A DNA stretch of 54,880 bases, counting the filler, from Basidiobolus ranarum (Eukaryota): the NCBI GenBank assembly GCA_040143965.1. It is 2 parts of 2 records of this genome, joined end to end, with 100 filler letters (N's around TTAATTAATTAA, not from the genome) between each part and the next. Parts side by side here need not be neighbours in the genome. Positions count along the whole stretch, not along the records: positions 27,544 to 54,880 come from JASJQH010000123.1; 1 more part is not named here. The stretch is one strand, 5' to 3'. Shown here one piece after another: positions 27,444 through 54,856 of this stretch. The notes under the pieces are model-generated. The model did no database searches. It was not told where the DNA came from and was given only the letters and a program-made list of their open reading frames with translations. A program made the position numbers and the translations under genes. Within the stretch, counting starts at the first letter, position 1, and the number at the start of each line of letters is the position of its first letter.

Positions 27444-27543
27444 NNNNNNNNNNNNNNNNNNNNNNNNNNNNNNNNNNNNNNNNNNNNTTAATTAATTAAN
27501 NNNNNNNNNNNNNNNNNNNNNNNNNNNNNNNNNNNNNNNNNNN
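27444..27543. other. Artificial contig-joining spacer: 44 N + TTAATTAATTAA (stops in all six frames) + 44 N
   Basis: Exactly 100 nt, symmetric, with a palindromic all-frame-stop linker; ORFs on both sides are cut off. Confidence 0.95.
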
Positions 27544-27544
27544 T

Positions 27545-28330
27545 GACCAATGCTCCAATAGCGAATGGACACACATTACATGTGGTGAAGGAACTGTATG
27601 CAGCATGAGTGATAGCAAGACGCCTACATGTGTACTAAAGGATGGTGCAGGTGATAGTAGTGAGGAAACCTCTCCTAGTAGTGATATTACAGATGATGTT
27701 GAAGGTGACGATGATACCGAGGTAGAGCAATCAGGTGACATGGAGTTGGAGAAGCGCGACCTTGATGAGGAGGATCATGAGAGCGACAATGAAGGCAATA
27801 CCGTTAAGGAGGATGTCAGTAATGACGATGAAGATGATGACGACGGTGGTGCTGATAAGAATGAATGTAGTGCATCAGACCATGGCAATGGTAAGGAAAA
27901 TGCTAAACATCAGCACACTGCCTTAGAGAAATGTGAGCAAGAAGGCGTTTGTGGTGACGATGGGGATGATAATGAAGGTGACCATAGGGCTAATGATAGC
28001 GAGAACGATGGAGATGACGAAGAGAGCGATGATGAAGATAATGACGAAGAAGGTAGTGACGACGATGAAACTGAAAGTCAAGAGGAGTACGGCATGTCAA
28101 GTGGCTCAGACAATGCAGAGAGTGCTAGTGGCTAACATAATGAAGTGATAAAGCGTGACGAAAATAGTGGTGATGATGAAGGTGATAATGGTGATAAAGA
28201 TGTTAATGAGAAAGATAATGAAGATGATGGTGAGGGTGACAATGAAAATGAGGGTGACACTGATGATGAGAAGGAAAATGGTAATGTCCAAGAGTACAAC
28301 CTAATCAATAACCATGCTGATCATGGATAG
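27545..28330 (+). CDS. Asp/Glu-rich low-complexity ORF, open to the contig edge; in-frame TAA at 28133-28135 followed by a similar acidic continuation
   Basis: Frame is open from 27545 to 28135; the same frame continues D/E/N/G-rich to 28330. Confidence 0.5.
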
Positions 28331-28714: not shown

Positions 28715-30097
28715 TTCATCAAATTCTTATGTACCTTAACTGAGATAAAGATCCCTAATTTGATTGATTTGAAGCGCAGCGGAATTCGGCCAGATGCACA
28801 AATCTTAGAAATAATCCAAATCCTGAAACAACCTCAAGTTATTGATATGGATGATTCCTATGATTTTTGTCAGTATCTTCAAGGCTCTACTACTGATCAC
28901 CTTCGAGTTTTTCGTGGCCCACTCATCAAATATAATGAAGAAATACAAGGCTGGGATTCGATATCTTTCCTTCAGCGATGTCCCAAATTGGAAAAAGTTC
29001 GGTTTAATCCGACTCAACCAAATACTTTCAAATGGGCAGTGAAGAGGCGTGATTTACTTACAGCATCTGATCTAGAATTAGGCCGTAGCTCAACTTCCAA
29101 ATTGGTTCCTCTTCAAGATGTCCACATGCAGTGTCAGTATTGTACTTCTCTTTCCATTGTACAGGATATCGTCTATGCTTTCAGGAATACAATTAAGAGT
29201 ATCACTGTGGAGGAACATTTACACCCTAGATTCCATTTTAACCCTGAACCTCTCCGTTGGGATTGGTTGCTACCCAACCTTGTAAAGATCCATATTGATG
29301 AAACAGATTTCACGTTATTTGATTTTGGATCACTCAATCTGTGCCCGTCTCTGGAAGATCTCCACCTAACTGGCGGGTATGGAGACATCGATTGTGACGT
29401 TATACCAGAATTTGGACCCATACTTAAGCTGCCAAATCTTCGGAATATCCAACTAGAATATGAAATATCTTTTCAATTCGATCTCGCTTCTCTCCAATAC
29501 TCGCCATTACTGGAAACACTCATAATTTCCAATGATGTCCCACTTAGTGAGGATGACGAATCTCCTATGATACGACCAACAGATTCACCTTGTTGGGAGT
29601 GGACCTGGGACTGGTATTTACCACATTTAAAGAGAATGGACCTAACTGGGGAATCAGCTTTTCTCTTTCAATTCCGTTTTATATCTTCGTGCCCTTCATT
29701 ACAATATCTCAGGCTTGATACTGATGAGTATGAGCGATCAATGTCATTAGATCAGATAGCTCGAACTGGGGTACTTTTACCATCTGCATACAAGAATCAA
29801 GTCAATGAAGTCAAGCATAGGTTCGAGTTTGCTCTTCAAGGAAGGTGGGAAATGTCCAAATATACATTGCATGTTCTCTTACTACAATACATGCCTCATG
29901 TTACAGATATCGACTTTTCTTGCGCTAATAGAATAGATCCTCTGGGTGTCATAGATGTAACCCAAAAACTATCACATGTTCGAAATGTAACGTTTAACTT
30001 GGCTTGCCATGATCCTGATATTGAAGATACTTTGAAATACTTGAGCGAACATGGCAGAGGTACATTTGGTTCCGTGAATTACACAATGCTACAGTAA
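28715..30097 (+). CDS. F-box/LRR family copy 1: lacks the N-terminal F-box half, 3' ORF intact (first ATG at 28847)
   Basis: Homology to the paralogs starts near TLTEIKIP; no stop codon for ~460 codons; upstream DNA has no recognisable F-box segment. Confidence 0.65.
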   Translation, partial: FIKFLCTLTEIKIPNLIDLKRSGIRPDAQILEIIQILKQPQVIDMDDSYDFCQYLQGSTTDHLRVFRGPLIKYNEEIQGWDSISFLQRCPKLEKVRFNPTQPNTFKWAVKRRDLLTASDLELGRSSTSKLVPLQDVHMQCQYCTSLSIVQDIVYAFRNTIKSITVEEHLHPRFHFNPEPLRWDWLLPNLVKIHIDETDFTLFDFGSLNLCPSLEDLHLTGGYGDIDCDVIPEFGPILKLPNLRNIQLEYEISFQFDLASLQYSPLLETLIISNDVPLSEDDESPMIRPTDSPCWEWTWDWYLPHLKRMDLTGESAFLFQFRFISSCPSLQYLRLDTDEYERSMSLDQIARTGVLLPSAYKNQVNEVKHRFEFALQGRWEMSKYTLHVLLLQYMPHVTDIDFSCANRIDPLGVIDVTQKLSHVRNVTFNLACHDPDIEDTLKYLSEHGRGTFGSVNYTMLQ

Positions 30098-30548: not shown

Positions 30549-32540
30549 ATGTCGCTACCTCAATTATCGACCGAGATACTTGCACTTATCGTTTTACACT
30601 TAACAAACGATAGGCAGACACTACATTCCCTACTCACAGTCAACAAGGTTTTCTTCAAGGTCAGTGCACCTATTCTGTATAAGAATCCTTTCCGTCCCTG
30701 GTTTTGGCCTAATATTGTGATTAAAGGAACCTACGAGATTCTATATCTTTTTCTCGCTTCTTCAAACCTTCTACCTGAGCTGGAAGAAATCTTGGACTGG
30801 GGCTTAGTAGAATGGAGCCCTCCAACTGCTCCTTTCACAGTAAACTATTTAGATTACTACACTGAGATAGACTACTTTCAGTGGAGATATGCTTTCAATA
30901 GGGCTTTTTATTATCCTGGAAGATACTCTAGAGATGTCTTTGGGTTTGGTGATATCATCCATATCTTATTTTGCAAGCATAATGCGGAGAAGATCAAGAC
31001 ACTTTATATTCCAATATTGAAGGTCGCACCCTACTTTCCGATAGTTACAAGATTGTCTTCTCTGCGAAGAATCAAATTTCGTAGGGTTCATAAAGATAGC
31101 AGTAACAAAAATATTATGACAATACAAGAAGCGATCCAGTTTGTTAAGACTCATGTTGAGACCTATGGTGATGCCTTAACTGAGATTAGCATTCCTAATA
31201 TGAGAGACTGGCACTATGCAGGAGTTCAGTCGGACGTAAAAATTGAAGATGTAGTTAATATCTTAAAACGGCCACAAGTAATTGAAGTGAGTGACTCTTA
31301 TCATTTTTGCGAGCATCTTCAACCTCATAGTACAGAGCATCTTCGAGTCTTTAAAGGACCGTTCATTAGTGACCAAAGAAGAATAGATGATTGGGACTCA
31401 GCATCTTTCTTTAAGCGTTGTCCTAAATTGGAAAAAATTCGCTTCACTTCGTTTCGATCCAATAGTTTTAAATGGGCAGTAGAGAGGCGCACCTTGCTTA
31501 CAGCCTCTGGATCAGAATCAATCATTTCGGTAGATAGCAAGCTACCACCCCTTCAAGATTTAGAAATGTTGTGTAGGGGATTAGATGCTCTACCCATTGT
31601 CCAGGATATTATCTATGCTTTCAGAAATACAATTAGAAGAATCACTGTGAAAGATGATAAACCTTTTGGACAATATCCTAAGCCTCTCTGTTGGGATTGG
31701 TTGCTACCCAACCTGGTAAAACTACATATCGATGGAGCAGATTTTACATTGTTTTTCCTGGGATCACTGAACGTATGCCCGTCTTTGGAAGAACTCTGTC
31801 TAATTAGCAAGAATGACTTTCATGATCGCCGTATTATAACTAAATTTGGCCCAATACTTAAGCTACCAAAACTTCGAAAAATTCGATTAATGCATATGAT
31901 ATCTTACGAATTCAACTTTGGCTCTCTCCTATACTCACCTTTACTGGAATCACTCACACTTTTTGAAACACGCTCCTCTCTTCCGTTACGACCAACTTAT
32001 TGGACATGTACATGGACCTGGGACTGGTATATGCCACGCTTAAAGGTGGTGAATCTAACTGGAGAATCGGCCTTTCTATTTCAATTCGGCCTATTAGACT
32101 CATGCCCACCACTAGAGTGTCTCATACTGAACACTAGGAGTCACCGTAGATCGTTATCCATGGATGATATACCTCGAATAAATTTGCCTTTACCTATACG
32201 GTCTGGGCCTGTGAGGCGAGCACGACAAACAGATGGATTCAGAAATAAAGTAACATTTGGGCTCCGTGGAAAGTGGAAACTCTCAAGGAAGATGTTATCT
32301 ACTCTCATCCAACGATACATGCTACATGTCACTCACTTTGATCTAACTGACATTGAAGGATTAACCGCTCTGGATATCATAATTGCAACCCAAAATTTGC
32401 CTCATGTTGTAGATGTTAGGTCGACAGCATGTTTGACCAACGATGACATTTTACAAACTGGTATGGATGTACGAAACGTTCCCTATTATGGCGTTGGTGA
32501 GATCGGCTCTGTGAAATACAGAATGGTGTGGCCTCATTGA
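30549..32540 (+). CDS. F-box-like + LRR/RNI-like protein, copy 2 (663 aa, single-exon CDS)
   Basis: LSTEILALIVLHL..DRQTLHSLLTVNKVFF.VSAPILYKNPF (F-box-like); repeated CPxLxxLxL / LPxLxxLxL; WTWDW motif. Confidence 0.88.
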   Translation: MSLPQLSTEILALIVLHLTNDRQTLHSLLTVNKVFFKVSAPILYKNPFRPWFWPNIVIKGTYEILYLFLASSNLLPELEEILDWGLVEWSPPTAPFTVNYLDYYTEIDYFQWRYAFNRAFYYPGRYSRDVFGFGDIIHILFCKHNAEKIKTLYIPILKVAPYFPIVTRLSSLRRIKFRRVHKDSSNKNIMTIQEAIQFVKTHVETYGDALTEISIPNMRDWHYAGVQSDVKIEDVVNILKRPQVIEVSDSYHFCEHLQPHSTEHLRVFKGPFISDQRRIDDWDSASFFKRCPKLEKIRFTSFRSNSFKWAVERRTLLTASGSESIISVDSKLPPLQDLEMLCRGLDALPIVQDIIYAFRNTIRRITVKDDKPFGQYPKPLCWDWLLPNLVKLHIDGADFTLFFLGSLNVCPSLEELCLISKNDFHDRRIITKFGPILKLPKLRKIRLMHMISYEFNFGSLLYSPLLESLTLFETRSSLPLRPTYWTCTWTWDWYMPRLKVVNLTGESAFLFQFGLLDSCPPLECLILNTRSHRRSLSMDDIPRINLPLPIRSGPVRRARQTDGFRNKVTFGLRGKWKLSRKMLSTLIQRYMLHVTHFDLTDIEGLTALDIIIATQNLPHVVDVRSTACLTNDDILQTGMDVRNVPYYGVGEIGSVKYRMVWPH

Positions 32541-33056: not shown

Positions 33057-35057
33057 ATGACACTGCCTCAATTATCAACTGAGATACTTACACTTATAGT
33101 TTCACACTTTACACTTGATAAGCACACTCTTCATTCCCTACTCACAGTCAACAAATTGTTCTTCAAGGTCAGTGCACCTATCCTATACAAGAATCCTTTC
33201 CGTCCCTCCCTTTGGCCTAACGAAACCGTAGTCCGAGCGCGAGAGATTCTATACCTTCTCTTCGCCTCAGCGAACCTTTTACCTGAGTTGACAGAAATCA
33301 CAACAGAAATATTGGACTGGGGTTTAACAGAGTGGGAGCCTCCAACCGCCCCATTTACAACAAACTATCTAGATTACTATACTGATATTGACTACTTTCA
33401 GTGGGAAAATGCTTATGACAGTACTTTCTTTTACATTTTACAGCATTCTAGTGATGACTTTGGGTTTGGTCATATTATCCATTTCTTATTTTGCAAATAT
33501 AATGCGGAGAAGATTAAGACTATTTACATACCAATATTGGATGTTAAACCTTACTTACCAATAGTTAAGAGATTATCTTCCCTGCGAAGAATCGAATTTC
33601 GTAGGGTTCACACTGATGAATGCGCTTGCGCCAGAGAGCAAGGTATCGTGACGTTACGTGATGCTATTGAGTTTGTCAAAACTCATGTTGAAACCTATAG
33701 CGATACCTTGGCTGAGTTAAAATTTCCGGATTTGACTGACATGAAAAGTGAAGGAGTCCCGTCGGACGTAAAAATTGAAGACATAGTCCATATCTTAAAA
33801 CGGCCTCAAGTAATTGAAGTGGATGACTCTTATCGTTTTTGCCGGTATCTTCAACCTTATAGTACGGAACATCTTCAAGTCTTTAGTGGACCGTTCATTT
33901 GCTATGATGGAAGAATACAGAATTGGGACTCGGCGTCGTTCTTTAAGCGTTGTCCAAAATTGGAAAAAATCCGCTTTAGCTCGTTTCGATCCGATAGTTT
34001 TAAATGGGCAGTAGAGAGGCGTGCCTCACTTACAGCTTCTAGGCCAGAATCAATCAGTTCGGTAGATAACGAACTGCCACCCCTTCAAGATGTAGAGATG
34101 TTGTGTATGAAGTTAGCTATTCTTCTCATTGTTCAGGATATCATCGATGCTTTCAGAAATACAATTAGAAGCATCACTGTGAAAGATGGTAAGCCCATTG
34201 AACACGATCCTGAGCCTCTCGGTTGGGATTGGCTGCTTCCCAACCTTGTAAAGATTGACATTACTGAGGCGGATTTTTCATTATTTGACTATGAATCACT
34301 TAACTTGTGTCCGTCTTTGAAAGAACTATCCTTAATTGGCAAGTATGAGTATCGTCGTAGGAGTACTGTGACTAGATTTGGCCCAATACTTAAGCTACCA
34401 AAACTTCGAAAAATTCATCTAGAGTTTGGGATATCTTACAAATTCAACTTTAACTCTCTACAATACTCACCTTTGCTGGAATCACTCACGCTTTGCGAGG
34501 TGGGCTCATCTCTTCCGATACGATCAGCAGACTCACCTTGCTGGACCTGGAATTGGAATATGCCATGCTTAAAGAAGATCGATCTAACTGGAGAGTCGGC
34601 TTTTCTATTTCAATTCGGCTTATTAGATTCATGTCCACCACTCGAGTGTCTCAAACTGAACACCGGGGAATACCATCGATCATTATCCATGGATGAGATA
34701 CCTCGAATAGATTCACCTTTACTTTCTGAATCTGTTAGTCTAGTAGGACCAAGAAATGTATTCAGTGGTAAATCAACATTTGAGCTCTGTGGAGAGTGGG
34801 AACTTTCCGAAAAGGCGCTAACAGCTCTTTTACAACGATACATGTTACATGTCACTCATATTGATCTTGGTGATACTGAAGGATTAACCGCTCTGGAAGT
34901 CATAAATGCAACTAAAAATTTGCCTCATGTTATAGATGTCAGCTCTACATTATGTTTGACGGATGATGATATCGAACAAACCGGAATGGATATGACTGAC
35001 TTTTTCCAATATGGCATTGGTACGATCGGCTCCGTGGATTACAGAATGGACTGGTAA
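33057..35057 (+). CDS. F-box-like + LRR/RNI-like protein, copy 3 (666 aa); closest to copy 2
   Basis: Same architecture; shares DYFQW, DVKIED and WDSASFFKRCPK with copy 2. Confidence 0.88.
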   Translation: MTLPQLSTEILTLIVSHFTLDKHTLHSLLTVNKLFFKVSAPILYKNPFRPSLWPNETVVRAREILYLLFASANLLPELTEITTEILDWGLTEWEPPTAPFTTNYLDYYTDIDYFQWENAYDSTFFYILQHSSDDFGFGHIIHFLFCKYNAEKIKTIYIPILDVKPYLPIVKRLSSLRRIEFRRVHTDECACAREQGIVTLRDAIEFVKTHVETYSDTLAELKFPDLTDMKSEGVPSDVKIEDIVHILKRPQVIEVDDSYRFCRYLQPYSTEHLQVFSGPFICYDGRIQNWDSASFFKRCPKLEKIRFSSFRSDSFKWAVERRASLTASRPESISSVDNELPPLQDVEMLCMKLAILLIVQDIIDAFRNTIRSITVKDGKPIEHDPEPLGWDWLLPNLVKIDITEADFSLFDYESLNLCPSLKELSLIGKYEYRRRSTVTRFGPILKLPKLRKIHLEFGISYKFNFNSLQYSPLLESLTLCEVGSSLPIRSADSPCWTWNWNMPCLKKIDLTGESAFLFQFGLLDSCPPLECLKLNTGEYHRSLSMDEIPRIDSPLLSESVSLVGPRNVFSGKSTFELCGEWELSEKALTALLQRYMLHVTHIDLGDTEGLTALEVINATKNLPHVIDVSSTLCLTDDDIEQTGMDMTDFFQYGIGTIGSVDYRMDW

Positions 35058-36086: not shown

Positions 36087-38144
36087 ATGTCACAGCTTCG
36101 ATTATCAGAAGAGTTAATCCCCCTCATCATTTTACAACTTGCACACGAAAAACATACACTTTATTCTCTACTCACAGTCAACAAGTTCTTTTTCCATACG
36201 GCTGCACCTATTCTGTACAAGAATCCTTTTCAACCATTCTTTTGGCCTAATTATTCGGAACCCATAAAACGAAAGATTCTGTACCTCCTCTTAGCTTCCT
36301 CGAATCTTCTACCTGAACTGCTTAAACACACAACTGGAATATTGGACTTGGCCTTAACAGATTGGGATCCTCCAACTGGCCCGTTTACAGTAAATTATCT
36401 AGATTACTACACCGAGATTAATTACTCTGAGTGGGAGAATATTTCCGAGGCACCTTTTTCTTATTCTGTAGGTAACTCTAGTCTTGAGACTGGATTTGGC
36501 CAAATCACCCACCTCTTATTTTGCAATTACAATGCAGTGAAGATTAGAAATATTTATTTACCAATCTTTAACGTTAAACCTTACTTTCCGATAGTTGTAA
36601 GTTTGTCTTCTGTGCGAAGAATCAACTTTCATAGGTTTTATGAAGATGGGTATTGCACCAACGACCAAAATATCGTGACGATACAGGATGCTATTGAGTT
36701 TGTTAAAATTCTTGTTGAGACCTTTGACAACACCTTAACTGAGATAAAGATCCCAGATTTAACTGACTTGAAGCGTTATGGAATTCGATCGGATGTACAA
36801 ATTTCGGATATAATCAGAATCCTGATACGACCTCGAGTAATTGATGTGCATGACTCCTACGATTTTTGTCAGTATCTTCAAGGTCCTACTACTGAGCACC
36901 TTCGCGTCTTTGGTGGGCCACTCATGCAACATAGTCAAAGAATACAAAACTGGGACTCGGCATCTTTATTTCAGCGTTGTCCTAAATTAGAAAAAATCCG
37001 CTTTATGTCATCGCAACCAAATAGTTTCAAATGGGCAGTGGAGAGACGTGATTTACTTCATGATTTCGACTCCGCTTTAAGTAGTACGTCAAATATCAAA
37101 CTACCACCTCTTCAAGAAGTTGACATGTTATGTCAGCATTGCCCTACTCTTCCCATTGTTCAGGATATCGTCTATGCATTCAGGAATACAATCAAGAGCA
37201 TCACTGTGTCAGATAAAATACTCCCTAATCTCCACCCTGACTCTCTCAGCTGGGATTGGTTACTGCCTAATCTTGTGAAAATCAAAATTAGTGAAGCAGA
37301 CTTATCTTTGTTTGACTTTGGATCACTCAATTTGTGTCCATCTTTGCAAGAGCTTTACCTATCCAGCAAGTATGACTTTCGCGAGCATGGAACTCCAATT
37401 GAATTTGGTCCGGTACTTAAGCTATCAAGTCTCCGAAAAATCAAATTGGAGTCCGGAATAACGTCTAAATTCGATTTTGACTCTCTCAAATACTCACCAT
37501 TACTGGAATCACTTATACTTCGCGAATCAAACTCATTTCTTCCCATGAGATCAGCGGATTCACCTTGCTGGACATGGACATGGGATTGGAATTTGCCGAA
37601 TTTAAAAGAATTGTTCCTGGCAGGAGAATCAGCTGTCCTTTTCCAATTTCGTTTGTTGGAGTCATGTCCGCCACTGGAGTTTCTTAAACTGGTGATATAT
37701 GATTACCATCGATCGTTGTTTTTAGATGAAATACCTACAAAAGATTCACCCTTACCTACAGAATTCGTGAAACAAGCAAGATCAAGAAAGAAAATTAAAC
37801 AAAATTCAATATTTATACTTCAAGGAAAGTGGGAACTCTCTGGGAAGACTATACCTACTCTCTTGCAACGATACATGTCTCATATCACGGATATCCAACT
37901 GACTGACATTCAAGGTTTAACGGCTATAGATGTCATAAATGCAACTAAAGAGCTGACTCGTATTAAAGTTGTACGTTGTACCATATGCTTGACAGATACT
38001 GACATAGAGCAAAGTGGAATGCATGTGATAGACCGTTGCTTATACGATAAAGGGTGGAGAAGTATTGGCAGGATCGACTCTGTAAACTATATCATGGGTT
38101 ATAAAGCAAATATCAATACGATAAGACCCTATTTACGCACATAA
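36087..38144 (+). CDS. F-box-like + LRR/RNI-like protein, copy 4 (685 aa)
   Basis: Start chosen by alignment with the paralogs (MSQLRLSEELIP); intact frame. Confidence 0.88.
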   Translation: MSQLRLSEELIPLIILQLAHEKHTLYSLLTVNKFFFHTAAPILYKNPFQPFFWPNYSEPIKRKILYLLLASSNLLPELLKHTTGILDLALTDWDPPTGPFTVNYLDYYTEINYSEWENISEAPFSYSVGNSSLETGFGQITHLLFCNYNAVKIRNIYLPIFNVKPYFPIVVSLSSVRRINFHRFYEDGYCTNDQNIVTIQDAIEFVKILVETFDNTLTEIKIPDLTDLKRYGIRSDVQISDIIRILIRPRVIDVHDSYDFCQYLQGPTTEHLRVFGGPLMQHSQRIQNWDSASLFQRCPKLEKIRFMSSQPNSFKWAVERRDLLHDFDSALSSTSNIKLPPLQEVDMLCQHCPTLPIVQDIVYAFRNTIKSITVSDKILPNLHPDSLSWDWLLPNLVKIKISEADLSLFDFGSLNLCPSLQELYLSSKYDFREHGTPIEFGPVLKLSSLRKIKLESGITSKFDFDSLKYSPLLESLILRESNSFLPMRSADSPCWTWTWDWNLPNLKELFLAGESAVLFQFRLLESCPPLEFLKLVIYDYHRSLFLDEIPTKDSPLPTEFVKQARSRKKIKQNSIFILQGKWELSGKTIPTLLQRYMSHITDIQLTDIQGLTAIDVINATKELTRIKVVRCTICLTDTDIEQSGMHVIDRCLYDKGWRSIGRIDSVNYIMGYKANINTIRPYLRT

Positions 38145-38231
38145 ACCTTGACCCAAAGTTTCCACCTAAGATGGTAAAGATCTAAGTCGAAGGAGTAGGC
38201 TCTTCATTGTTTTAGTTCAGTTCACTCTAAT

Positions 38232-38846
38232 TGTGCCCGTCTTTTGAAGAACTTTGGCAAATCCCAAAAATTCAATTTTGACTCGCTCAAATACTCTTAT
38301 TTACTGGAATCCCTCATACTTTACGAAATTGGCTCACCTCTTCCAACTAATTTACCTTGCTGGACCTAGAATTGCATCCAAAGTGATTGAATCTTACTAG
38401 AGAATCAGCTGACATTGTTCAATTCTGTTTACTGGATTCCTCTCGACTATTGCAATATCTCGAACAGATTACGTAAATTACCGCATAGACTATAAACAAA
38501 AACGATCTCCGTAATGCTTTTAATTATGATTGCTTTCGCCAGAAATTACTAGCATTAGATATAAATGCAGAGAATACACTACCAGAAAGATATATGTACG
38601 ACTATATACGTATTACAGAGTTGTTTAACTAACTTTAAAGTATGAGTTTGTTAATAATAATTAAAAAATATCCATTCGGAACATATGCCATATCGAAGAA
38701 ACCTTCTAATGCCACCAAATTTGCCTCATATTGTAGAAAGTACTACGTCATATTTGACAAAAGCTGAGTTGGAACAAACTGAAATGGTTATGAAAGAAGC
38801 TATTGGAGGTACTATCGGCTCGGTGAGTTACAGAATGGATTGGTGA
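38232..38846 (+). pseudogene. Degenerate 3' remnant of an F-box/LRR paralog
   Basis: Blocks matching CPSLEEL, KFNFDSLKYS, PCWTW, GESA..FQF and the copy-3-like end GTIGSVSYRMDW*, interrupted by deletions, stops and frameshifts. Confidence 0.8.
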
Positions 38847-39719: not shown

Positions 39720-41771
39720 ATGTCCTCATTTCAAATACCAGAAGATCTGATTACGCAGATTATTTCACATCTCGCATACGAAAAGCACACACTCCATTCC
39801 CTACTCACAGTTGATAAGTTGTGCTTCAACGTAGCCGCATCAGTTCTGTATAGGAATCCATTCCGCCCTTGCTATTGGTCTCGACCTTTAAGTATTAAAC
39901 AGCGGGATGTTCTATACCTTCTCTTAGCTTCTGCGAACCTTCTACAAAAACTGGAAAAATATTCAAATAAAACATTGACCTGGGCCTCAAGCGAATGGCA
40001 ACCTCCACTCGGTCCTTTTACAGTGAACTATCTTCAGTACTACACCGAGATTGATTTCTCTCACTGGGGTGTTATCTCGGAGGAAAAATTTTCGTACGTA
40101 GTAGGTAATTCTAAACCCGAACCTGAGTTTTGCCGCTTTATTCATCTCTTATTTTGCAAATATAATGCAAGGAATATCAAGAGTGTTTCTTTACCAATTT
40201 TGGATATGAAGCCGTACTTGCCGTTAGCTGCAAGATTATCTTCGCTGCAAAGAGTAGAATTTATAGTATATCATGATGGAATCTCGAGGACTGATAACCA
40301 AAATATCTTGACAATACAAGATGCCATCAGGTTTATTAAGATTCATGTTGATGTCTTTGACGACACTTTAACCGAGATAAAGGTCCCAGATCTTACTAAC
40401 TTGAGGCGTCGTGTAATTGGATCGAATGAACAAATCTCGGATATGATCAGAATCTTGAAACGACCTCAAGTAATTGATGTAGCTGACTCCTATGATTTTT
40501 CCCAATTTATCCAAGGCTCTATTGCTGACCATCTCCGAGTCTTCAGTGGCCCACACATGAGCTATGATGAGGGAATACAAGACTGGGACTCACTTTCTTT
40601 ACTTCAGCGTTGTCCTAAATTGGAAAAAATCCACTTTAGTTCGACTGAGCCAAACAGTTTTCGATGGGCAGTGGAGAGGCGAGATTCGCTTATAGACCCT
40701 GATTCCTCCTCAAGCAACCAGTCAGTCATCAAACTGCCACCTCTTCAAGATGTTGACATTATGTATGAGAATTGTGCAGCTCTTCCCAATGTTCAGGATA
40801 TCATCTACGCTTTCAGAAATACCATAAAGAGTATCGCTGTAAATGAAGATCGGCCCACCGGAGTCGGGCCTGAACCTCTCTGTTGGGACTGGTTGCTACC
40901 TAACCTTGTAAAGCTCCGTATCGAACAAGTGGATTTTTCATTATTTGACTTTGGATCCCTCAATTTTTGCCCGTCTTTGGAAAAGATCTGCCTAGTTAGC
41001 AAGTGTGAGCATTCTCATCGTGGTAGAGATATTAGTCGTAGTAGCGGCAATGTGACCGAATTCGGCCCAGCACTTAGGTTACCAAATCTTCGGAAAATTC
41101 GATTAGAACACGAAGTATCTTACCAATTCAATTTTGACTCTCTCAAATACTCACCGTTACTGGAATCACTCACAATTACAGAATCGGGCTTATGTCTTCC
41201 GATAAGACTGGAAAACTCAGCTTGCTGGGCATGGACATGGGACTGGAATTTGCCACATTTGAAACGGTTGGATCTGGAAGGTGAATCGGCGTTCCTCTTT
41301 CAATTCCGTTTATTGGAATCATGTCCACCACTGGAATATCTCTCACTGAGCATGAGGAAATACCATCGCGTATTATCGTTGGATGAGATCCCAAATACAA
41401 ATTCATCTTTTCGTTCTAAATATGTGATCCCCGAAGTGTCAGACAATGAGCTCATTCAAGGTCCAACATTTAAGCTCAATGGATGGTGGGAACTCACTGG
41501 GGAAACACTATATGTTCTCTCACGACGATACATGTCTCATGTCACGTACATTGATCTTATTGGTACTGAAGGACTTACCCTTCTAGATGTCATCTATGCT
41601 ACCCATACGCTTCCCCGTGCTCGATTTGTACATTCTACGTTATACTTGACAAATGATGATTTAGAAAATAACCCAATGCTCTCGAGGAGCTATACAAGAT
41701 ATGGCAAGGGATGGGAGTTCAGATGCTCAGTTGATTCTGTGGATTACCTTATAGTATGTATTCCAAAATAG
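39720..41771 (+). CDS. F-box-like + LRR/RNI-like protein, copy 5 (683 aa)
   Basis: Intact ORF with the family motifs; pairs with copy 6, including flanking DNA. Confidence 0.88.
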   Translation: MSSFQIPEDLITQIISHLAYEKHTLHSLLTVDKLCFNVAASVLYRNPFRPCYWSRPLSIKQRDVLYLLLASANLLQKLEKYSNKTLTWASSEWQPPLGPFTVNYLQYYTEIDFSHWGVISEEKFSYVVGNSKPEPEFCRFIHLLFCKYNARNIKSVSLPILDMKPYLPLAARLSSLQRVEFIVYHDGISRTDNQNILTIQDAIRFIKIHVDVFDDTLTEIKVPDLTNLRRRVIGSNEQISDMIRILKRPQVIDVADSYDFSQFIQGSIADHLRVFSGPHMSYDEGIQDWDSLSLLQRCPKLEKIHFSSTEPNSFRWAVERRDSLIDPDSSSSNQSVIKLPPLQDVDIMYENCAALPNVQDIIYAFRNTIKSIAVNEDRPTGVGPEPLCWDWLLPNLVKLRIEQVDFSLFDFGSLNFCPSLEKICLVSKCEHSHRGRDISRSSGNVTEFGPALRLPNLRKIRLEHEVSYQFNFDSLKYSPLLESLTITESGLCLPIRLENSACWAWTWDWNLPHLKRLDLEGESAFLFQFRLLESCPPLEYLSLSMRKYHRVLSLDEIPNTNSSFRSKYVIPEVSDNELIQGPTFKLNGWWELTGETLYVLSRRYMSHVTYIDLIGTEGLTLLDVIYATHTLPRARFVHSTLYLTNDDLENNPMLSRSYTRYGKGWEFRCSVDSVDYLIVCIPK

Positions 41772-43751: not shown

Positions 43752-45824
43752 ATGTCCTCAATTCCAATACCAAAAGAACTAATTCCTCAAATCATTGCAC
43801 AACTCGCTTACGAAAAGCAAACACTCCATTCTCTACTTACAGTTAATAAGTTGTGCTTCAACGCAGCCGCATCAGTTCTGTATAGGAATCCATTCCGCCC
43901 TTGCTATTGGTCTCAACCTTTGAGTATTAAAAAGCGGGATGTTCTATACCTTCTCTTAGCTTCTGCGAAACTTCTACGAAAACTGACAAAATATTCAAAA
44001 AAAATATTGGTCTGGGCCTCAAGTGAATGGGAACCTCCACTTGGCCCTTTTACAGTAAACTATCTTCAGTACTACACTGAGATTGACTACTCTCAATGGG
44101 ACGTTATCACCACGGCAGCTTTTTCATACGTAGTAAGTAACTCTAGACCTGGACCTGAGTTTGGCCACTTTATCCATCTCTTATTTTGCAAATATAATGC
44201 AAGGAATATCAAGAGCGTTTCCTTGCCAATTTTGGATATGAAGCCGTACTTGCCATTAGCTGTGAGATTGTCTTCGCTGCGAAGAATAGAATTTTGTAGG
44301 GTATATCACGATGAAATCTTGTGTACCAATAACCAGAATATCGTGACAATACAAGATGCCATCAGGTTTATTAAGATTCATGTTAAGGTTTTTGACGACA
44401 CTTTAACTGAGATAAAGATCCCAGATCTTACTGACTTGAAGTTTGATGGAATTCGGTCGAATGTACGAATCTCGGATATCATCAGAATCTTGAAACGACC
44501 GCAAGTAATTGACGTAGCTGATTCTTATGATTTTTGCCAGTTTATCCAAGGCCCTATCGATAACCGTCTCCGGGTCCTCAATGGCCCATTCATGAGATAC
44601 AGTGAAGGAGTACAAGACTGGGACTCGGCTTCTTTACTTCAGCGCTGTCCTAAATTGGAAAAAATCCGCTTCAGTTCGACTGAGCCAAACAGTTTTCGAT
44701 GGGCAGTGGAGAGGCGAGATTCGCTAATAAACTCTGATTCTTCCTCAAGCAACCAGCCAGCCATCAAACTGGCACCTCTTCAAGATGTTCACATTATGTA
44801 TCAGAATTGCGCGGCTCTTCCCATTGTCCAGGATATCATCTATGCTTTCAGAGATACAATCAAGAATATCGATATGACGGATCATCAGCCAAGTGGACTC
44901 GGGCCTGAGCCTCTTTGTTGGGACTGGTTGCTACCGAACCTTGTAAAGATCCTTATCAATCAAGCGGATTTTGCATTGTTTGACTTTGGATCCCTTAACT
45001 TCTGCCCGTCTTTGGAAGAACTCTGCTTAATTAGCAGGTATGAGCATTTTGGTAGGAGCAGTAACAGTAGTAGTAGCAGCGGCACTGTGACCGATTTCGG
45101 CCCGGTACTTAGGCTACCAAATCTTCGGAAAATTCGATTGGAGCATGGAGTATCTTACCAATTCAATTTTGATTCTCTCAAATACTCACCGTTACTGGAG
45201 TCGCTCATACTTAAAGAATCGGGCTCATGTCTTCCGATACGACCGGAAAACTCACCTTGCTGGGCATGGACATGGGACTGGAATTTGCCACATTTGAAGC
45301 AGTTAGATCTGGCTGGAGAATCAGCGATCCTCTTTCAATTCCGTTTTTTGGAATCATGCCCACCACTGGAACATCTCACACTGAGCACGGAGCGATATCA
45401 TCGTTCATTATCCTTGGATGAGATACCAAAAACAAATTTCTCTTTTCGTTCTAAATATGTGATCCCAGGAGTGTCAAACAATGGATTCAGTTGCAGTCCA
45501 AAATATGTGCTCAATGGAAGGTGGGAACTCTCTGGGAAAACATTATTTGTTCTCTCACAACGATATATGTCTCATGTCGTAGAAATTCATCTTAATGGTA
45601 ATGAAGGATTTGCCGCTCTAGATGTCATCTATGCTACCCATATGCTGCCCCGTGCTCGATTTGTATATTCTACGTTATACTTGACAGATGATGATGTAAA
45701 AACCAATGCAATGTTCTTGAAGGACTGTAAAGTACGTGCTAAAGGATGGAAGTTCTTAGGCTCTGCTGACTCTGTAAATTACGTTATAAAATGTATTCCA
45801 GCCCAAAATAGGCCTTGGAGCTAA
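43752..45824 (+). CDS. F-box-like + LRR/RNI-like protein, copy 6 (690 aa)
   Basis: Intact ORF from MSSIPIPKELIP; paralog of copy 5. Confidence 0.88.
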   Translation: MSSIPIPKELIPQIIAQLAYEKQTLHSLLTVNKLCFNAAASVLYRNPFRPCYWSQPLSIKKRDVLYLLLASAKLLRKLTKYSKKILVWASSEWEPPLGPFTVNYLQYYTEIDYSQWDVITTAAFSYVVSNSRPGPEFGHFIHLLFCKYNARNIKSVSLPILDMKPYLPLAVRLSSLRRIEFCRVYHDEILCTNNQNIVTIQDAIRFIKIHVKVFDDTLTEIKIPDLTDLKFDGIRSNVRISDIIRILKRPQVIDVADSYDFCQFIQGPIDNRLRVLNGPFMRYSEGVQDWDSASLLQRCPKLEKIRFSSTEPNSFRWAVERRDSLINSDSSSSNQPAIKLAPLQDVHIMYQNCAALPIVQDIIYAFRDTIKNIDMTDHQPSGLGPEPLCWDWLLPNLVKILINQADFALFDFGSLNFCPSLEELCLISRYEHFGRSSNSSSSSGTVTDFGPVLRLPNLRKIRLEHGVSYQFNFDSLKYSPLLESLILKESGSCLPIRPENSPCWAWTWDWNLPHLKQLDLAGESAILFQFRFLESCPPLEHLTLSTERYHRSLSLDEIPKTNFSFRSKYVIPGVSNNGFSCSPKYVLNGRWELSGKTLFVLSQRYMSHVVEIHLNGNEGFAALDVIYATHMLPRARFVYSTLYLTDDDVKTNAMFLKDCKVRAKGWKFLGSADSVNYVIKCIPAQNRPWS

Positions 45825-46670: not shown

Positions 46671-48734
46671 ATGCCACAACCCTACCTATCGTCAGAGATA
46701 ATTACGCTTATCATAAAATATCTTGCATATGAAACACATACTCTCTACTCCTTGCTGACGGTTAATAAGTTATGTTTTGATTTAGCTACACCTTTTCTGT
46801 ATAGGAACCCTTTCCGTCCATGCTTCTGCTGCGATCGTTCAAGCTCTAGGATGGGCGGCGTTATGTATCTTCTCTTGGCTTCATCGAACCTTTTGCTAGA
46901 GTCGGTGAAGTCTCCCAGAAAAGAGCACCTGCCCTTAACAAAATGGGAGCCTCCGACTGCCCCGTTTACAGTAAACTATCTTGATTACTACACAGAGATT
47001 AATTACTCTGACTGGGAAAGTATTTCCTGTCACCCGTATTTTGACATGCACGCCAGAAGTTACACTAGCCATGGGCTTGGGTTGATCCACTTCCTCAACC
47101 TCTTACTTTTGAAGTATCAGACAGAGAAAATCGAGAGTATTTGTTTGCCAATTTTGGATATGAAACCGTACTTGCCGTTAGCTGCCAGATTATCTTCCCT
47201 GCGAAGAATAGAATTTTGTAGGTATAGTGCTGATATATTTAGTTGCGCCAACGACCAAAATATCGTGACTATAAAGGATGCAATTGAGTTTGTCAAGATT
47301 CATGTGGAGACGTTCGGCGATATCTTAACTGAGATAAAGGTTCCAGATTTTTCTAGCTTGGATTATAATGGAATTCCATCAGATATACAAATCTTAGATA
47401 TAATCAATATCCTAAAACAACCTCAAGTGATTGAATTGGGTGACTCTTATAATGTTTGCCAGTATCTACAAGGTCCTTCTACTGATTATCTCCGAGTTTT
47501 TAGTGGACCGTTCAGTTGCGAAAATGGTGAACTACGAGACTGGGATTGGAACCCTGCATCTTTATTTCAGCGTTGTCCCAAATTGGAAAATGTCAGTTTT
47601 AAATCACTACAGTCAAATAGTTTCAAATGGGCGGTGGAGAGGCGTTATTTATGTATCAACTCCGGCACCGTATCAGATAGTAAACTGCCACCTCTTCAAT
47701 ATGTTAATGTAAAATGCCAGCATTGTGCTGCTCTTCCCATGGTACAGGATATACTTTATGCCTTCAGGAATACTGTCAAGAGTATTGTTGCGATAGAAAC
47801 CGAATTCTCCGGGCTCAATCCTGAGCCTCTGTGCTGGGATTGGTTGTTACCTAACCTTGTTCAGATCCATATCAGTGGAGCAGACTTATCTTTGTTTGAG
47901 ATTGAAGCACTTAACCTGTGCTCATCTTTGGAAGATCTTAACCTAACTGATAAATACGTCTATCGTAGTAGTAGTACTGTAACTGAATGTAGCCCGGTAC
48001 TTAAACTTCCCAAACTTCGAAAAATTCAATTAATGTGCACAACATGTTACAAATTCAACTTTGACTCTCTCAAATACTCACCATTACTGGAATCACTCAT
48101 ACTTTTTGAAATGAATTCCGCTCTTCCGATACGGCCATCTTGCTTGTCATGGACCTGGGATTGGCGTTTGCCGCACTTAAAAGTGTTGGATTTAACCGGA
48201 GAACCAGCTATCCTCTTTCAATTTCGTTTGTTAGACTCATGCCCACCACTGCAACGGCTCAGACTAGAAACTGGTGGATACTGCAGGGAATTGTCCTTGG
48301 AAGAAATACTGTCAACAGATACTTATTTACGTTCTGAATCTGTGAACCGAGTTGCATCTAGATGCGTATTCAGTCGAGACCCAGAGTTTTTTCTCTGCGG
48401 TAAGTGGAAACTCTCGGAGAAGACGTTATCTGCTTTATTGCTACGATACATGCCACATGTCAAGACAATGAAATTTGCTGATATTGAAGGATTGACCGTT
48501 TCAGATGTTATAAGAATCACTCAACAGTTGAGTCATGCCAAATTCGTATCATTTTATATACTCTTGAATGATGCTGACATTAAACAACTTGGAATGGAGT
48601 TGATCTCTTGGAATAATCGTGACTGCAGGCTCTGTATTGGCTCCATAGAGTATACCATGGGTTATAAACCAAAGGAAGGAACATATGCCTTTAAATATCG
48701 AAACCGCTTCGCCAGAGTAATGCCTCAGAGATAA
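46671..48734 (+). CDS. F-box-like + LRR/RNI-like protein, copy 7 (687 aa)
   Basis: Intact ORF from MPQPYLSSEII; pairs with copy 9 and pseudogene copy 8. Confidence 0.88.
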   Translation: MPQPYLSSEIITLIIKYLAYETHTLYSLLTVNKLCFDLATPFLYRNPFRPCFCCDRSSSRMGGVMYLLLASSNLLLESVKSPRKEHLPLTKWEPPTAPFTVNYLDYYTEINYSDWESISCHPYFDMHARSYTSHGLGLIHFLNLLLLKYQTEKIESICLPILDMKPYLPLAARLSSLRRIEFCRYSADIFSCANDQNIVTIKDAIEFVKIHVETFGDILTEIKVPDFSSLDYNGIPSDIQILDIINILKQPQVIELGDSYNVCQYLQGPSTDYLRVFSGPFSCENGELRDWDWNPASLFQRCPKLENVSFKSLQSNSFKWAVERRYLCINSGTVSDSKLPPLQYVNVKCQHCAALPMVQDILYAFRNTVKSIVAIETEFSGLNPEPLCWDWLLPNLVQIHISGADLSLFEIEALNLCSSLEDLNLTDKYVYRSSSTVTECSPVLKLPKLRKIQLMCTTCYKFNFDSLKYSPLLESLILFEMNSALPIRPSCLSWTWDWRLPHLKVLDLTGEPAILFQFRLLDSCPPLQRLRLETGGYCRELSLEEILSTDTYLRSESVNRVASRCVFSRDPEFFLCGKWKLSEKTLSALLLRYMPHVKTMKFADIEGLTVSDVIRITQQLSHAKFVSFYILLNDADIKQLGMELISWNNRDCRLCIGSIEYTMGYKPKEGTYAFKYRNRFARVMPQR

Positions 48735-48949
48735 ATTCGTTTAAAGGAAACATATCAATACCGTTAAGCAATTATTATGGAATGATTTTATAAACTGAGA
48801 TCAATTTCTCTGGATGGGCAGATAGAATTGTTTTCTTACGTAAGGGACCAGACAATTGAACTATGAGTACATTTGTAGCTGATTGAAAAATCTGCTTACC
48901 ATTTGGCATTCACTAACCATTTAGTCTAGTAGTGATTCTTGGTAATGGC

Positions 48950-49445
48950 CAAGGTGTGTTTCAACGCAGCTATATCTATCCTGTACAAGAATCCTTTCCG
49001 TTCGTGCCTTTGGGTGAGCACTTCGAAGGCCAGAAAACGAGAGGTTTTGTACCTTCTTTTAGCTTCATCAAACCTTCTACCTGAACTAGCAAGAATCATC
49101 ACATGGTATAGTACATTATTATAGAGAGTGTGATCTAACAGTCTGTATGCTCAGTTGGTTCGGTCATTATGTATATATAAATAGGTTATGTATGATAATT
49201 AGAAAACTAGGAAACAGGTGTATGATATCTTAGATAATGGACTTGAGTTTCAGGATCTAATGTGCTGTAAAACTTCATTGGCTTGTCAAATGACTGTTAC
49301 CATTTTTGCGACACCTTAACTGAAGTAAGGATTCCAAATCTGAAGCATAATGAAGCTTTGTACTCAATAGAAGGTCGGAACTCTCTGGGAAAATATTATT
49401 TCTTCTCTCACAACGATACATGTCTCATGTCGCCGAAATTCATCC
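48950..49445 (+). pseudogene. Collapsed F-box/LRR copy (N-terminal, middle and C-terminal fragments in the original order)
   Basis: KVCFNAAISILYKNPF..VLYLLLASSNLLPEL (48950-49100), DTLTEVRIP (~49309-49340) and a near-identical copy-6 segment GGAACTCTCTGGGAAAA...GAAATTCATC (~49365-49445). Confidence 0.8.
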
Positions 49446-49632: not shown

Positions 49633-50960
49633 ATGTCACAACCTTACTTATCATCCGAGATTATTACCCTCATCATAACGCATCTTGCATACGAAAAACA
49701 TACACTCTACTCCTTACTCACAGTTAATAAGTTGTGTTTCAATTTAACTGTACCTGTTTTGTATAGGAATCCTTTCCATCCATGCTTTTGCTGTGATCCT
49801 TCAGACTTTAAAATGGGGGAGATTATGTATCTTCTTTTGGCTTCATCGAACCTTTTGCCAGGACCGGTGAAGTCTCCCAGAAAAGAGCACTCGTTTTTTC
49901 CGAAATGGGAGCCTCCAACTGCCCCGTTTACAGTAAATTATCTTGACTACTACAGAGATTAATTACTATGACTGGGAATATATTTATAGGGCACCCGTAT
50001 TTTTGCATGCACTCTAAAAGTGATCCTGGCCATGGGCTCGAATTGATACACTTTCTTAACCTCTTACTTTTGAAGTATCAGGCGGAGAAAATTGGGAGTA
50101 TTTGTTTGCCAATTTTAGATATGAAGCCGTACTTGCCGTTAGCTACCAGATTATCTTCCCTGCCAAGAATAGAATTTTGTAAGTACACTACTGATTTATC
50201 TACTTGCACCAGCGACTCTGCATCTTTATTTCAGCGTTATCCCAAATTGGAAAATGCCAGTTTTAAATCACTACAGTCAAATAGTTTCAAATGGGCGGTG
50301 GAGAGGCGTGATTTATATATCAACTCCGGCACCGTATCAGATAGTAAACCGCCGCCTCTTCAATATGTTGATATATCTTGTCAACATTGCGCGGCTCTTC
50401 CTATTGTACAGGACATCAATAGAATATGTTACAGATTCAACTTTGGCTCTCTTGAATACTCTCCATTGCTAGAGACTATCGACCTTTTAGAAACAGGCAC
50501 CTCCCTTCCGATACGGCCACTTCACGCACCTTGTTGGACATGGACTTGGGACTGGAAGCTACCGCGTTTAAAAAAATTGTCACTGGTTGGAGAATCAGCT
50601 GTACTATTTCAATTCCACTTATTGGATTCATGTCCACTACAGGATTATCTTGGTCTCAACAATGGAAGATATCGTCGTACACTGGCCTTGAATGAGATAC
50701 TCAGAACAGATTTATCTACTGAATACGTGAGCCAAATAGTACCAAGAAATGAAATTAATCATAAGTGTAAATAGTTCTACTTTAGAGGTTTTAAACTCTC
50801 TTGAAAGACGTTATCTATGTCTCAAGCTACGGAAATCTATCTTGTTGAAGTAGCAGGATTAACCCGTACAGACATCAGAAATGCAACACAAAATTTTCCT
50901 CATATTCAATGCGTACGCTCCTCGTTCACTCTGAGAAATGCTCATATTAAACAACATAGT
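49633..50960 (+). pseudogene. F-box/LRR copy 8: frameshifted, with two large internal deletions and a degenerate 3' end
   Basis: TACTACAGAG versus TACTACACAGAG (2-bp loss, ~49955), then a further frame change; deletions at ~50215 and ~50418; stop at 50772-50774 followed by C-terminal remnants. Confidence 0.85.
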
Positions 50961-51511
50961 CAACAAGGTATTTTTGAACGTCTTTTTTGTACAAGACTAT
51001 TTTTCCTTCAGGCAGTTAGCATGACATTTTCGGAGATTCTACACCATGAAACTTCTTCAACCTTGTACCGAAATTGACAAATTCCACCACAGAAGTATTG
51101 GACTGGGACAAACTAGATTCAGGCCTTACAACTGCTCCATTTACAGTGAGGCATCTTTATTCCTCTGAGTGAGCGGCAACGTAAGAAAATATTGTTGAAA
51201 ACCTATATATTCAGTGATTTTGCACGCTAAAATACCTATATGATAGCTCCCACAAAGGTGAGCCTATATTCAAGCTTGCATACTTTTCCAAGCATTTTTC
51301 TGGATTATGCACGTTTATTCAACTGAACTGAAGAGATTTTGACAATTTCACAAAATAGTGTCTAACTTTATCACTTGAATATTTTACATACGATAAAAAG
51401 AATGTCATTTACTCAATTGAATAAAGTGAGGTTAGAAAACAAATCTATTTGGATGTTACAAATAATTTACCATTACACCAAGGACAAATATATGACCAGG
51501 TGAGTGGCAAA

Positions 51512-54314: not shown

Positions 54315-54856
54315 TATCTTTCTACATTACCAGCGGATAATCATCTAACTAAACTGGCAAATGCCTCAAAAGAATTGTTGGGACAGGCCTTGACTGAATC
54401 CCACTGATCCATTTACAGTGAATTATCTAAAATATTACACTGAAATGAATTATTCAGAGTGAGAAGATACTAACAGTGAAAAATACTTGTATGTGGCAAA
54501 GCATTTTAACTTTACAGTTGGCGAAATCATCAATTTCTTATTTTGTGAATATAATGCTCAAGAGTGTGTGTTTGCCAATCCTAAATATGAAGCCTTACTT
54601 GCCATTAGCTCCAAGAATTCCTTATTTACAACGGCTCGAGTATGGTAGGGTAGATAAAGATCAGGCCCTTGCAACCTATGATCAAGATTTCTTAACAATA
54701 CCAGATGGGATTGAGTTTGTCAAAATTCACGTGGAGACCTTCGGCGGCCCCTTAACCGGGATCAAGATTCCAGATCTTAGTGACATGATATGTGATGGAA
54801 ATCAGCTAGACATACAAATCAGGGATATAGTTCAACTCGTGAAACGACCTACTTAA
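54315..54856 (+). pseudogene. Degenerate N-terminal/middle remnant of an F-box/LRR paralog
   Basis: PFTVNYLKYYTEMNYSE*E (TGG>TGA), frameshifts, then LPILNMKPYLPLA...EFVKIHVETFG..LKRP-like sequence ending in a stop; no F-box start. Confidence 0.8.

Follow-up and report, generated by a model that had tools for sequence, protein, structure and literature searches.

The stretch of DNA that we analysed (the window) comprises 54,880 nt of the Basidiobolus ranarum assembly GCA_040143965.1. Its right-hand side (27,544-54,880, record JASJQH010000123.1) carries a tandem array of related genes which we describe as F-box-like/leucine-rich repeat (LRR) genes. All members are encoded on the + strand, from 28.7 to 54.9 kb, and a tblastn search with two of the copies as query gave no family match elsewhere in the window. 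The array contains seven full-length intronless paralogs (c2-c8, 663-690 aa), one 5'-truncated copy (c1) and four decayed fragments. Table 1 lists the position of each member together with the features of c2, the copy that was used as reference throughout. The main observation is that the residues pointing outwards from the strands of the later repeats change at approximately the neutral rate, which is three times the rate of the rest of the region and seven times the rate of the hydrophobic anchors. With moderate confidence we consider the array to be a lineage-specific tandem family of probable substrate receptors of SCF (Skp1-Cullin-F-box) ubiquitin ligases, the paralogs of which differ in the binding face of LRR7-17.

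Table 1. Members of the array and features of the reference copy c2, with positions in the window (ORF, open reading frame; pLDDT, predicted local distance difference test; ω, dN/dS, the ratio of the non-synonymous rate dN to the synonymous rate dS)
Feature	Position	Strand	Description
c1	28733..30097	+	5'-truncated; homology from residue ~209 of c2; first-ATG ORF 28847-30097, 416 aa
c2	30549..32540	+	663 aa; reference copy for the coordinates of the sequence-only reading; sequence modelled with AlphaFold2
c2, F-box-like N-terminal three-helix segment	30561..30692	+	residues 5-48; helices 8-20, 22-30 and 33-43; pLDDT <50; ω 0.40; Pfam negative
c2, LRR7-LRR17	31551..32429	+	residues 335-627; outward positions x5 and x7 (also x3, x9) at approximately the neutral rate
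c2, Trp-rich motif before LRR9	31674..31712	+	residues 376-388; nearly invariant; ω 0.16
c2, LRR9 strand	31713..31736	+	L389-G396; set 1 of the sequence-only reading
c2, LRR10 strand	31785..31808	+	L413-S420; set 2 of the sequence-only reading
c2, LRR11 strand	31872..31895	+	L442-H449; set 3 of the sequence-only reading
c2, Trp-rich motif before LRR13	31998..32039	+	residues 484-497; conserved; ω 0.26-0.30
c3	33057..35057	+	666 aa; sister of c2 (dN 0.20, dS 0.52)
c4	36087..38144	+	685 aa from the Met aligned to the other copies; first ATG of the ORF at 35949
Decayed relic of the LRR region	38165..38843	+	four short tblastn pieces in differing frames
c5	39720..41771	+	683 aa
c6	43752..45824	+	690 aa; sister of c5 (dN 0.14, dS 0.27)
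c7	46671..48734	+	687 aa from the aligned Met; first ATG of the ORF at 46617
Isolated fragment resembling the N-terminal (F-box-like) part	48936..49106	+	tblastn
Pseudogene akin to c7/c8	49633..50972	+	frame broken near 49960; internal deletions, one taking out exactly LRR8-11
c8	52187..54250	+	687 aa; sister of c7; central LRR block much older than the flanks
Start of a further copy	54400..54850	+	two frames (frame-shifted), running towards the window end

For c2 we obtained an AlphaFold2 model with a pLDDT of 70 and a predicted template modelling score (pTM) of 0.69. Based on this model each full copy is predicted to start with an F-box-like three-helix N-terminus, followed by ∼17 LRRs. Between residues 150 and 660 the model shows ∼17 short strands that are 23-45 residues apart. 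We used the DSSP strands of the model and the hydrophobic anchors to set 17 LRR registers of the form L1 x2 x3 L4 x5 L6 x7 x8. Several of the repeats open with a Cys-Pro-x-Leu motif ahead of the strand, an arrangement that also occurs in the LRRs of F-box proteins. Identity to solved structures was 8-16%, and the c2 sequence produced only chance-level matches to PDB chains (E 0.34 and 0.44). The family profile matched the LRR domain of KDM2B/FBXL10 (E 7.9e-4), which was the only significant profile match in the PDB. The LRR fold of the family is established, and its nearest solved folds are COI1, TIR1, D3 and FBXL2.

The sequence-only reading had described a nearly fixed scaffold and, within it, three sets of hexamers at predicted exposed strand positions which differ in almost every copy. 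All of these hexamers are present in the alignment of the copies. For set 1 we found 8/8 strings. Set 2 has seven distinct strings for the eight copies because c2 and c6 have the same one, and for set 3 seven of the eight had been listed, with the IRLEHG of c6 omitted. The span given for copy 2, 31550-32130, corresponds to residues 335-528 of c2 and to LRR7-LRR14. The scaffold residues that had been named are likewise invariant or nearly so in an alignment of 15 sequences (W382, D383, W384, L386, P387, L389, V390, C410, L413, S463, P464, L465, L466, W489 and W491). The two Trp-rich motifs before LRR9 and LRR13 occur in all copies, and no other part of the family is as conserved; they could be a common functional site.

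To quantify the variation we computed the entropy of each column in an alignment of 17 sequences, namely the eight window copies and nine named B. ranarum proteins. The 22 columns that represent x5 and x7 of LRR7-17 showed an entropy of 2.50 bits, compared with 1.26 bits in the 244 other columns from residue 330 onwards (Mann-Whitney p 2.4e-9) and 1.41 bits if only the non-hydrophobic ones of these other columns are considered (Mann-Whitney p 3.3e-8). The anchors L1, L4 and L6 showed values of about 0.50-0.71 bits. Averaged over all 17 LRRs the entropy was 1.99 bits for x5 and 2.02 bits for x7, with 1.22 bits for the whole protein; LRR1-6 did not show the pattern. The same contrast recurred when the two groups of sequences were analysed separately, with 2.07 vs 1.02 bits for the window copies and 2.02 vs 0.99 bits for the other nine members, though the latter may be paralogs of this genome or of one very closely related to it, and thus are not an independent species replicate. 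In the three sister pairs 12, 14 and 20 of the 22 x5/x7 positions differ (14/22 for c5/c6), as do 91, 58 and 80 of the 254 positions elsewhere.

The observation made in the sequence-only reading is thus confirmed, with two qualifications. The enrichment at x5 and x7 of LRR7-17 is clear from the entropy and also from the substitution rates given below. However, among the top 5% most variable columns (35) only 11 are strand x positions and the other 24 are spread over loops, the C-terminal tail and the linker that follows the N-terminus. Furthermore the first letter of the listed hexamers, which is x3 (K/Q/R in set 1, E/D/K in set 2 and I in set 3), is rather conserved in LRR9-11.

We then compared the rates of evolution across the classes of positions. 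All codon analyses were carried out on the eight window copies, divided into three segments each with its own tree, and used our own approximate implementations. The class-wise ω was estimated with fixed branch lengths and a fixed regional synonymous rate, and the site-class fits kept the branch lengths obtained under M0. The class that was defined in advance consists of x5 and x7 of all 17 LRRs; the LRR7-17 subset was picked after the entropies were known. Pairwise ω ranged from 0.30 to 0.52 and M0 gave 0.49, 0.44 and 0.67 for the three segments, with the highest value in the C-terminal one. Between deep pairs dS was near saturation (0.76-1.30).

For the anchors we observed an ω of 0.20 under GY94 and 0.22 under MG94, and for the rest of the region 0.50 under both models. 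Segments with pLDDT <50 reached 0.78 (GY94). For the class defined in advance ω was 1.12 under GY94, with 1.08 for x5 and 1.16 for x7 and neither above 1 by the test, and 1.20 (interval 1.02-1.44, p 0.045) under MG94. Restricted to LRR7-17 the class showed 1.44 (1.16-1.80, p 0.0014) under GY94 and 1.60 (1.28-1.98, p 4e-5) under MG94. It is faster than the disordered segments with pLDDT <50, and it differs from the rest of the region with a likelihood ratio test (LRT) statistic of 69. The same two positions in LRR1-6 showed an ω of only 0.60-0.62, which differs from LRR7-17 with an LRT of 19.0. For the positions highlighted by the sequence-only reading (x3, x5, x7 and x8 of LRR9-11) we obtained 1.00 (0.74-1.34) under GY94 and 1.08 (0.80-1.44) under MG94, which is not significant.

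The alternation along the strand is most obvious if the positions are considered one after the other: ω was 0.18, 0.44, 0.90, 0.22, 1.36, 0.22, 1.54, 0.44 and 1.28, with 0.18-0.22 for the inward positions and 0.90-1.54 for the outward ones. Shifting the register by one residue lowered ω to 0.22-0.34 and the peak disappeared. In addition, we drew 5000 random sets of 22 non-anchor codons, and the highest ω among them was 1.04, short of 1.44. As a pairwise check we divided the Nei-Gojobori dN of the class by the dS of the region; the three sister pairs gave 0.81, 1.54 and 1.45, and a deep pair gave 0.68.

The site models gave strong signals as long as the synonymous rate was held constant. M2a was preferred over M1a (LRT 10.2, p 0.006), M8 over M7 (LRT 32.1, p 1e-7) and M8 over M8a (LRT 15.9, p 3e-5). 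At the level of individual sites, the naive empirical Bayes (NEB) probabilities under M8 reached 0.95 at none of the 678 codons and 0.8 at eight of them, four of which are on the strand face (LRR12, LRR13 and LRR15) and none in LRR9-11. Sites with dN/dS above 1, for which the sequence-only reading had proposed M7/M8- and FUBAR-type tests after correction for recombination, were not upheld in such analyses, run after a GARD-like scan, once the synonymous rate was allowed to vary. With eight sequences the power is low and positive selection is neither shown nor excluded.

The trees of the segments disagree with each other. The GARD-like scan of the seven full-length copies placed breakpoints near alignment columns 360 and 560, with the corrected Akaike information criterion (AICc) dropping from 23287 without breakpoints to 23134 with two. 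The most striking case is the pair c7/c8. Across columns 401-560 we found a dS of 1.02 and a dN of 0.35, compared with a dS of 0.30 and 0.39 and a dN of 0.10 and 0.19 in the two flanks (Fisher p 1.5e-7 on the synonymous differences, block vs flanks). Accelerated protein evolution in this LRR block is ruled out because dS is raised as much as dN and the N-terminal flank has the same ω as the block (0.34). The comparison of the sequences instead points to a mosaic, in which either the flanks were homogenised by gene conversion or the LRR block was exchanged with an unsampled paralog. The pairs c2/c3 and c5/c6 do not show such a contrast in dS between block and flanks. For c5/c6 we also noted that the C-terminal quarter (columns 561-700) has a dN of 0.236 and a dS of 0.227, and hence an ω of 1.04. 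Within the genes the only direct repeat at the DNA level was a single one of 23 nt with 74% identity in c2, and Tandem Repeats Finder (TRF) reported no array inside any copy. This near absence of intragenic repeat identity rules out the shuffling of intragenic repeats as a source of diversity. Flanking cassette repeats similar to those of variable lymphocyte receptor (VLR) loci were not found around the array genes either.

We interpret these observations as follows. In a Basidiobolus-type fungus gene birth and death would be at work, with tandem duplication adding copies of which some decay. The proteins would be substrate receptors of SCF ubiquitin ligases. Docking onto the ligase core would be through the conserved N-terminus and LRR1-6, and the parallel beta-sheet of LRR7-17 would serve as the binding face. 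L1, L4 and L6, the two Trp-rich motifs and the helical back of the solenoid are under purifying selection, which would keep the fold, whereas x5 and x7 (to a lesser extent x3 and x9) change near the synonymous rate. Because the outward residues change at about that rate, each paralog would present a different concave surface and would most likely have a different target. Segmental exchange or gene conversion between the copies would then generate the mosaics. That the genes are maintained follows from the intact 2-kb ORFs, the constrained anchors, the ω of 0.40 for the F-box-like N-terminus, the values of 0.16-0.30 for the Trp-rich motifs and the ω of 0.44-0.67 per segment. The array, the fold class, the rates by position and the mosaicism are shown by the data, and from them we infer Skp1 binding, a role in ubiquitin ligases and the binding of ligands by the variable face.

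A number of results speak against this interpretation, some of them concerning the rates and others the fold and the N-terminus. A FUBAR-like grid assigned a probability of at least 0.8 for a non-synonymous rate β above the synonymous rate α to none of the 678 codons and classified 292 sites as purifying. Allowing any class with β>α improved the fit by a 2ΔlnL of only 0.75 if α varied, compared with 15.8 if α was fixed at 1. With its own α the x5/x7 class of LRR7-17 showed an α of 1.3 and a β of 1.4, thus a β/α of 1.08 (LRT 0.11, p 0.74), and an ω near 1 is equally expected from a surface without constraint. Moreover, the 'concave face' was deduced from the DSSP strands, the alternating ω and general knowledge of LRR solenoids.

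These rates fit with the neutral drift of an unconstrained concave surface in a redundant or decaying family ('genomic drift'), where any conserved function would be exerted through the Trp-rich motifs and the scaffold. The four decayed copies or fragments and the truncated copy in the same array are in line with such drift, as is the finding that conservation is highest in the Trp-rich motifs. Nevertheless seven ORFs of ∼2 kb have remained intact, with an ω of 0.20 at the anchors and an overall ω well below 1. The strand face, at 1.1-1.6, is also faster than the predicted disordered loops, although exposed strand residues are normally somewhat constrained, and its point estimates for LRR7-17 are at least 1 in every model. 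Finally, the very same positions do retain constraint in LRR1-6. We regard drift as the main rival of the receptor interpretation, though a less likely one.

A stronger version is that the concave face is under diversifying selection, like that of plant nucleotide-binding leucine-rich repeat (NLR) proteins, which would put the paralogs in an arms race with variable targets such as viral, bacterial or parasite proteins. In its favour are the class-wise ω obtained with the regional synonymous rate, the M8 vs M8a comparison with half of the eight best NEB sites on the strand face and the elevated dN/dS of the class in two of the three sister pairs. However, the class that was set in advance did not exceed 1 under GY94, the larger values stem from a subset that was picked post hoc, the remaining sister pair and the deep pair are both below 1 and the signals vanish once the synonymous rate varies. 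Branch lengths fixed at M0, a sample of only eight sequences and a dS near saturation in deep pairs further weaken the case, and we consider this explanation unlikely. The likeness to NLRs and VLRs that the sequence-only reading had pointed out is consequently a likeness in the spatial pattern: outward alternating positions are varied and anchors fixed, also in the nine further members, but a dN/dS above 1 is not established.

The remaining difficulties for the receptor interpretation concern the fold and the N-terminus. The curated LRR models LRR_4, LRR_8 and LRR_At5g56370 in Pfam stayed below threshold with 11.6-26.4 bits at a cut-off of 27; the best Pfam LRR score was 20.6 bits among the eight window copies scanned and 26.4 bits among all 19 proteins scanned. 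The first ten rows of a Foldseek search were COI1, D3, TIR1 and one 'LRR-F-Box plant ubiquitin ligase', most of them in complex with ASK1 (E 5e-6 to 9e-5), but the template modelling (TM) scores were low (0.25-0.35, and 0.25-0.32 for the top ten). VIA-align reported FBXL2 as top match (Z 15.8, root-mean-square deviation 6.8, 335 residues aligned), followed by FBXL17, though Z values of 14-16 were tied over many unrelated LRR proteins. Neither of the Pfam models F-box and F-box-like (PF00646 and PF12937) matched any of four full-length copies, or any of seven N-termini even at E up to 10. Across 15 relatives scanned with Pfam there was just one sub-threshold F-box-like match (E 0.028), in a homolog from Mortierellomycota at the homologous residues 6-51. 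When the N-termini were run as a profile against the PDB, no F-box chain was found and there was only a chance-level match to an arsenate reductase (E 1.7), and in the model of c2 the N-terminus has a pLDDT <50. In c1 the F-box-like part is entirely gone, together with LRR1-3, and the open frame is nonetheless kept (416-460 aa). We detected no family homology in the 1.2 kb upstream of c1. This copy could be a truncated pseudogene or a decoy without adaptor part.

On the other hand, residues 1-75 resemble F-box-like clusters in the language-model features of the ESM Atlas with a score of 0.94, this family set being common to 12 of 30 matches. By Atlas structure the same residues resemble proteins named F-box domain-containing with TM scores of 0.62-0.80. 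Among the 11 B. ranarum relatives listed, nine carry the UniRef name 'F-box domain-containing protein'. Judging from these predicted structures and features the N-terminus of the family is a probable F-box, and we chose the name F-box-like/LRR because of the Pfam, model, Foldseek, VIA-align, profile, Atlas and UniRef results taken together. That the proteins act outside the ubiquitin system, as LRR scaffolds or receptors whose helical N-terminus is unrelated to the F-box, would agree with the missing F-box matches in Pfam and PDB, the low confidence of the modelled N-terminus and the VIA-align ties with LRR proteins that have no F-box, but it is improbable given the Atlas resemblances, the weak match of the Mortierellomycota homolog, the F-box-LRR receptors at the top of the Foldseek results, the profile match to FBXL10/11 and the concordant UniRef names.

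Close relatives with 47-56% identity were seen only under Basidiobolus ranarum names, and their consecutive locus tags place them in further small clusters. Under these names there are 20 or more family members, on at least six contigs. The family profile matched 834 cluster representatives at E ≤1e-3, 79 of these at ≤1e-30. All 16 of the distant clusters that were looked up and named belong to Mortierellomycota and are annotated as 'hypothetical' or F-box proteins of 500-1250 aa. Some of the Mortierellomycota F-box/LRR proteins align from residue 5 to ∼650 of the family; unlike the array proteins many are longer (750-1300 aa), and identity is only ∼23-25% over the long alignments. By sequence comparison there is apparently a large undescribed superfamily that is common to Basidiobolus and Mortierellomycota. 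None of the papers searched described such a family for either group, and co-mentions with F-box were limited to a figure legend and a reference. Broader searches of these papers for F-box families subject to positive or diversifying selection likewise yielded no description of a family from Basidiobolus or Mortierellomycota.

The left half of the window contains intron-split housekeeping genes: APC1 (several ORFs), a C2H2 factor, a Zn2Cys6 factor, an XPG-family nuclease, DcpS and an NSUN-type methyltransferase, the best named relative of which is from Basidiobolus meristosporus (75% identity). The gene for anaphase-promoting complex subunit 1 (3243-9150) is split by introns into at least three ORFs, whereas the array genes are all intronless. 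GC content is 35-44% across the whole window. Two runs of Ns just left of the array (27444-27487 and 27500-27543, 44 bases each) mark a join. The array is linked to the housekeeping genes of the left half through this join, and the joined parts need not be neighbours in the genome. Between the join and c1 there is a 176-aa ORF (27605-28135) in which Asp, Glu, Ser and Gly are extremely abundant and which has no family assignment. Short imperfect tandem repeats with periods of 15-24 occur at and just past its 3' end (28034-28270).

Among known systems the FBXL receptors (FBXL2, FBXL17, KDM2A/B = FBXL11/10, and COI1, TIR1 and D3/MAX2) have the same layout, with three N-terminal helices ahead of a long LRR solenoid. 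They differ in that the family described here is without Pfam matches above threshold, has two invariant Trp-rich motifs ahead of LRR9 and LRR13 and forms a tandem array of fast-diverging paralogs, in place of single conserved orthologs. With the LRRs of plant NLRs and the lamprey VLRs the array shares the enrichment of variation at the strand x positions over a fixed hydrophobic scaffold, as well as clustered genes and the exchange of sequence between paralogs. Unlike NLRs, none of the four copies scanned with Pfam at E up to 1 contained an NB-ARC, NACHT or TIR domain, and unlike the lamprey VLRs we found no somatic cassette system. Fungal NLR-like proteins have hypervariable WD40, ANK or TPR repeats with high internal conservation. 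They are comparable in being fungal, paralog-rich repeat proteins with variable surface positions, but in our case the LRRs within a gene have no notable similarity at the DNA level and the diversity lies between the paralogs.

The closest evolutionary parallel is with the expansions of F-box adaptors in Caenorhabditis and plants. For these PMC8120010 describes adaptive evolution in the substrate-binding domain (citing Thomas 2006). A role in the recognition of foreign proteins has been proposed for the nematode and plant families. The expansions resemble the array in tandem duplication and in being large lineage-specific families with a conserved F-box part and a fast substrate-recognition part. 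They differ in that theirs mostly have FTH or FBA domains, with positive selection reported, whereas here the variation is at LRR strand positions and an ω >1 is not demonstrated. The host here is moreover an early-diverging fungus.

The array also provides a caution, as hypervariability of the NLR type that passes tests of the M7/M8 kind drops to the neutral rate here once synonymous-rate variation and recombination are allowed for. With eight ORFs and several decayed copies within 26 kb it is a compact natural series in which the scaffold and the candidate binding surface can be separated residue by residue, and this makes it a convenient system in which to study whether the targets of fungal F-box-LRR paralogs differ. 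We see a small chance that the array serves in fungal surveillance, as a repertoire of SCF receptors whose diversified concave LRR faces, reshuffled in blocks between neighbours, would bind proteins of intruders, be they viruses, gut bacteria or others, and deliver them to ubiquitination. If this were true, the array would be a fungal counterpart of the F-box expansions of nematodes and plants and would show an NLR-like variation of the LRR surface without the NLR chassis.

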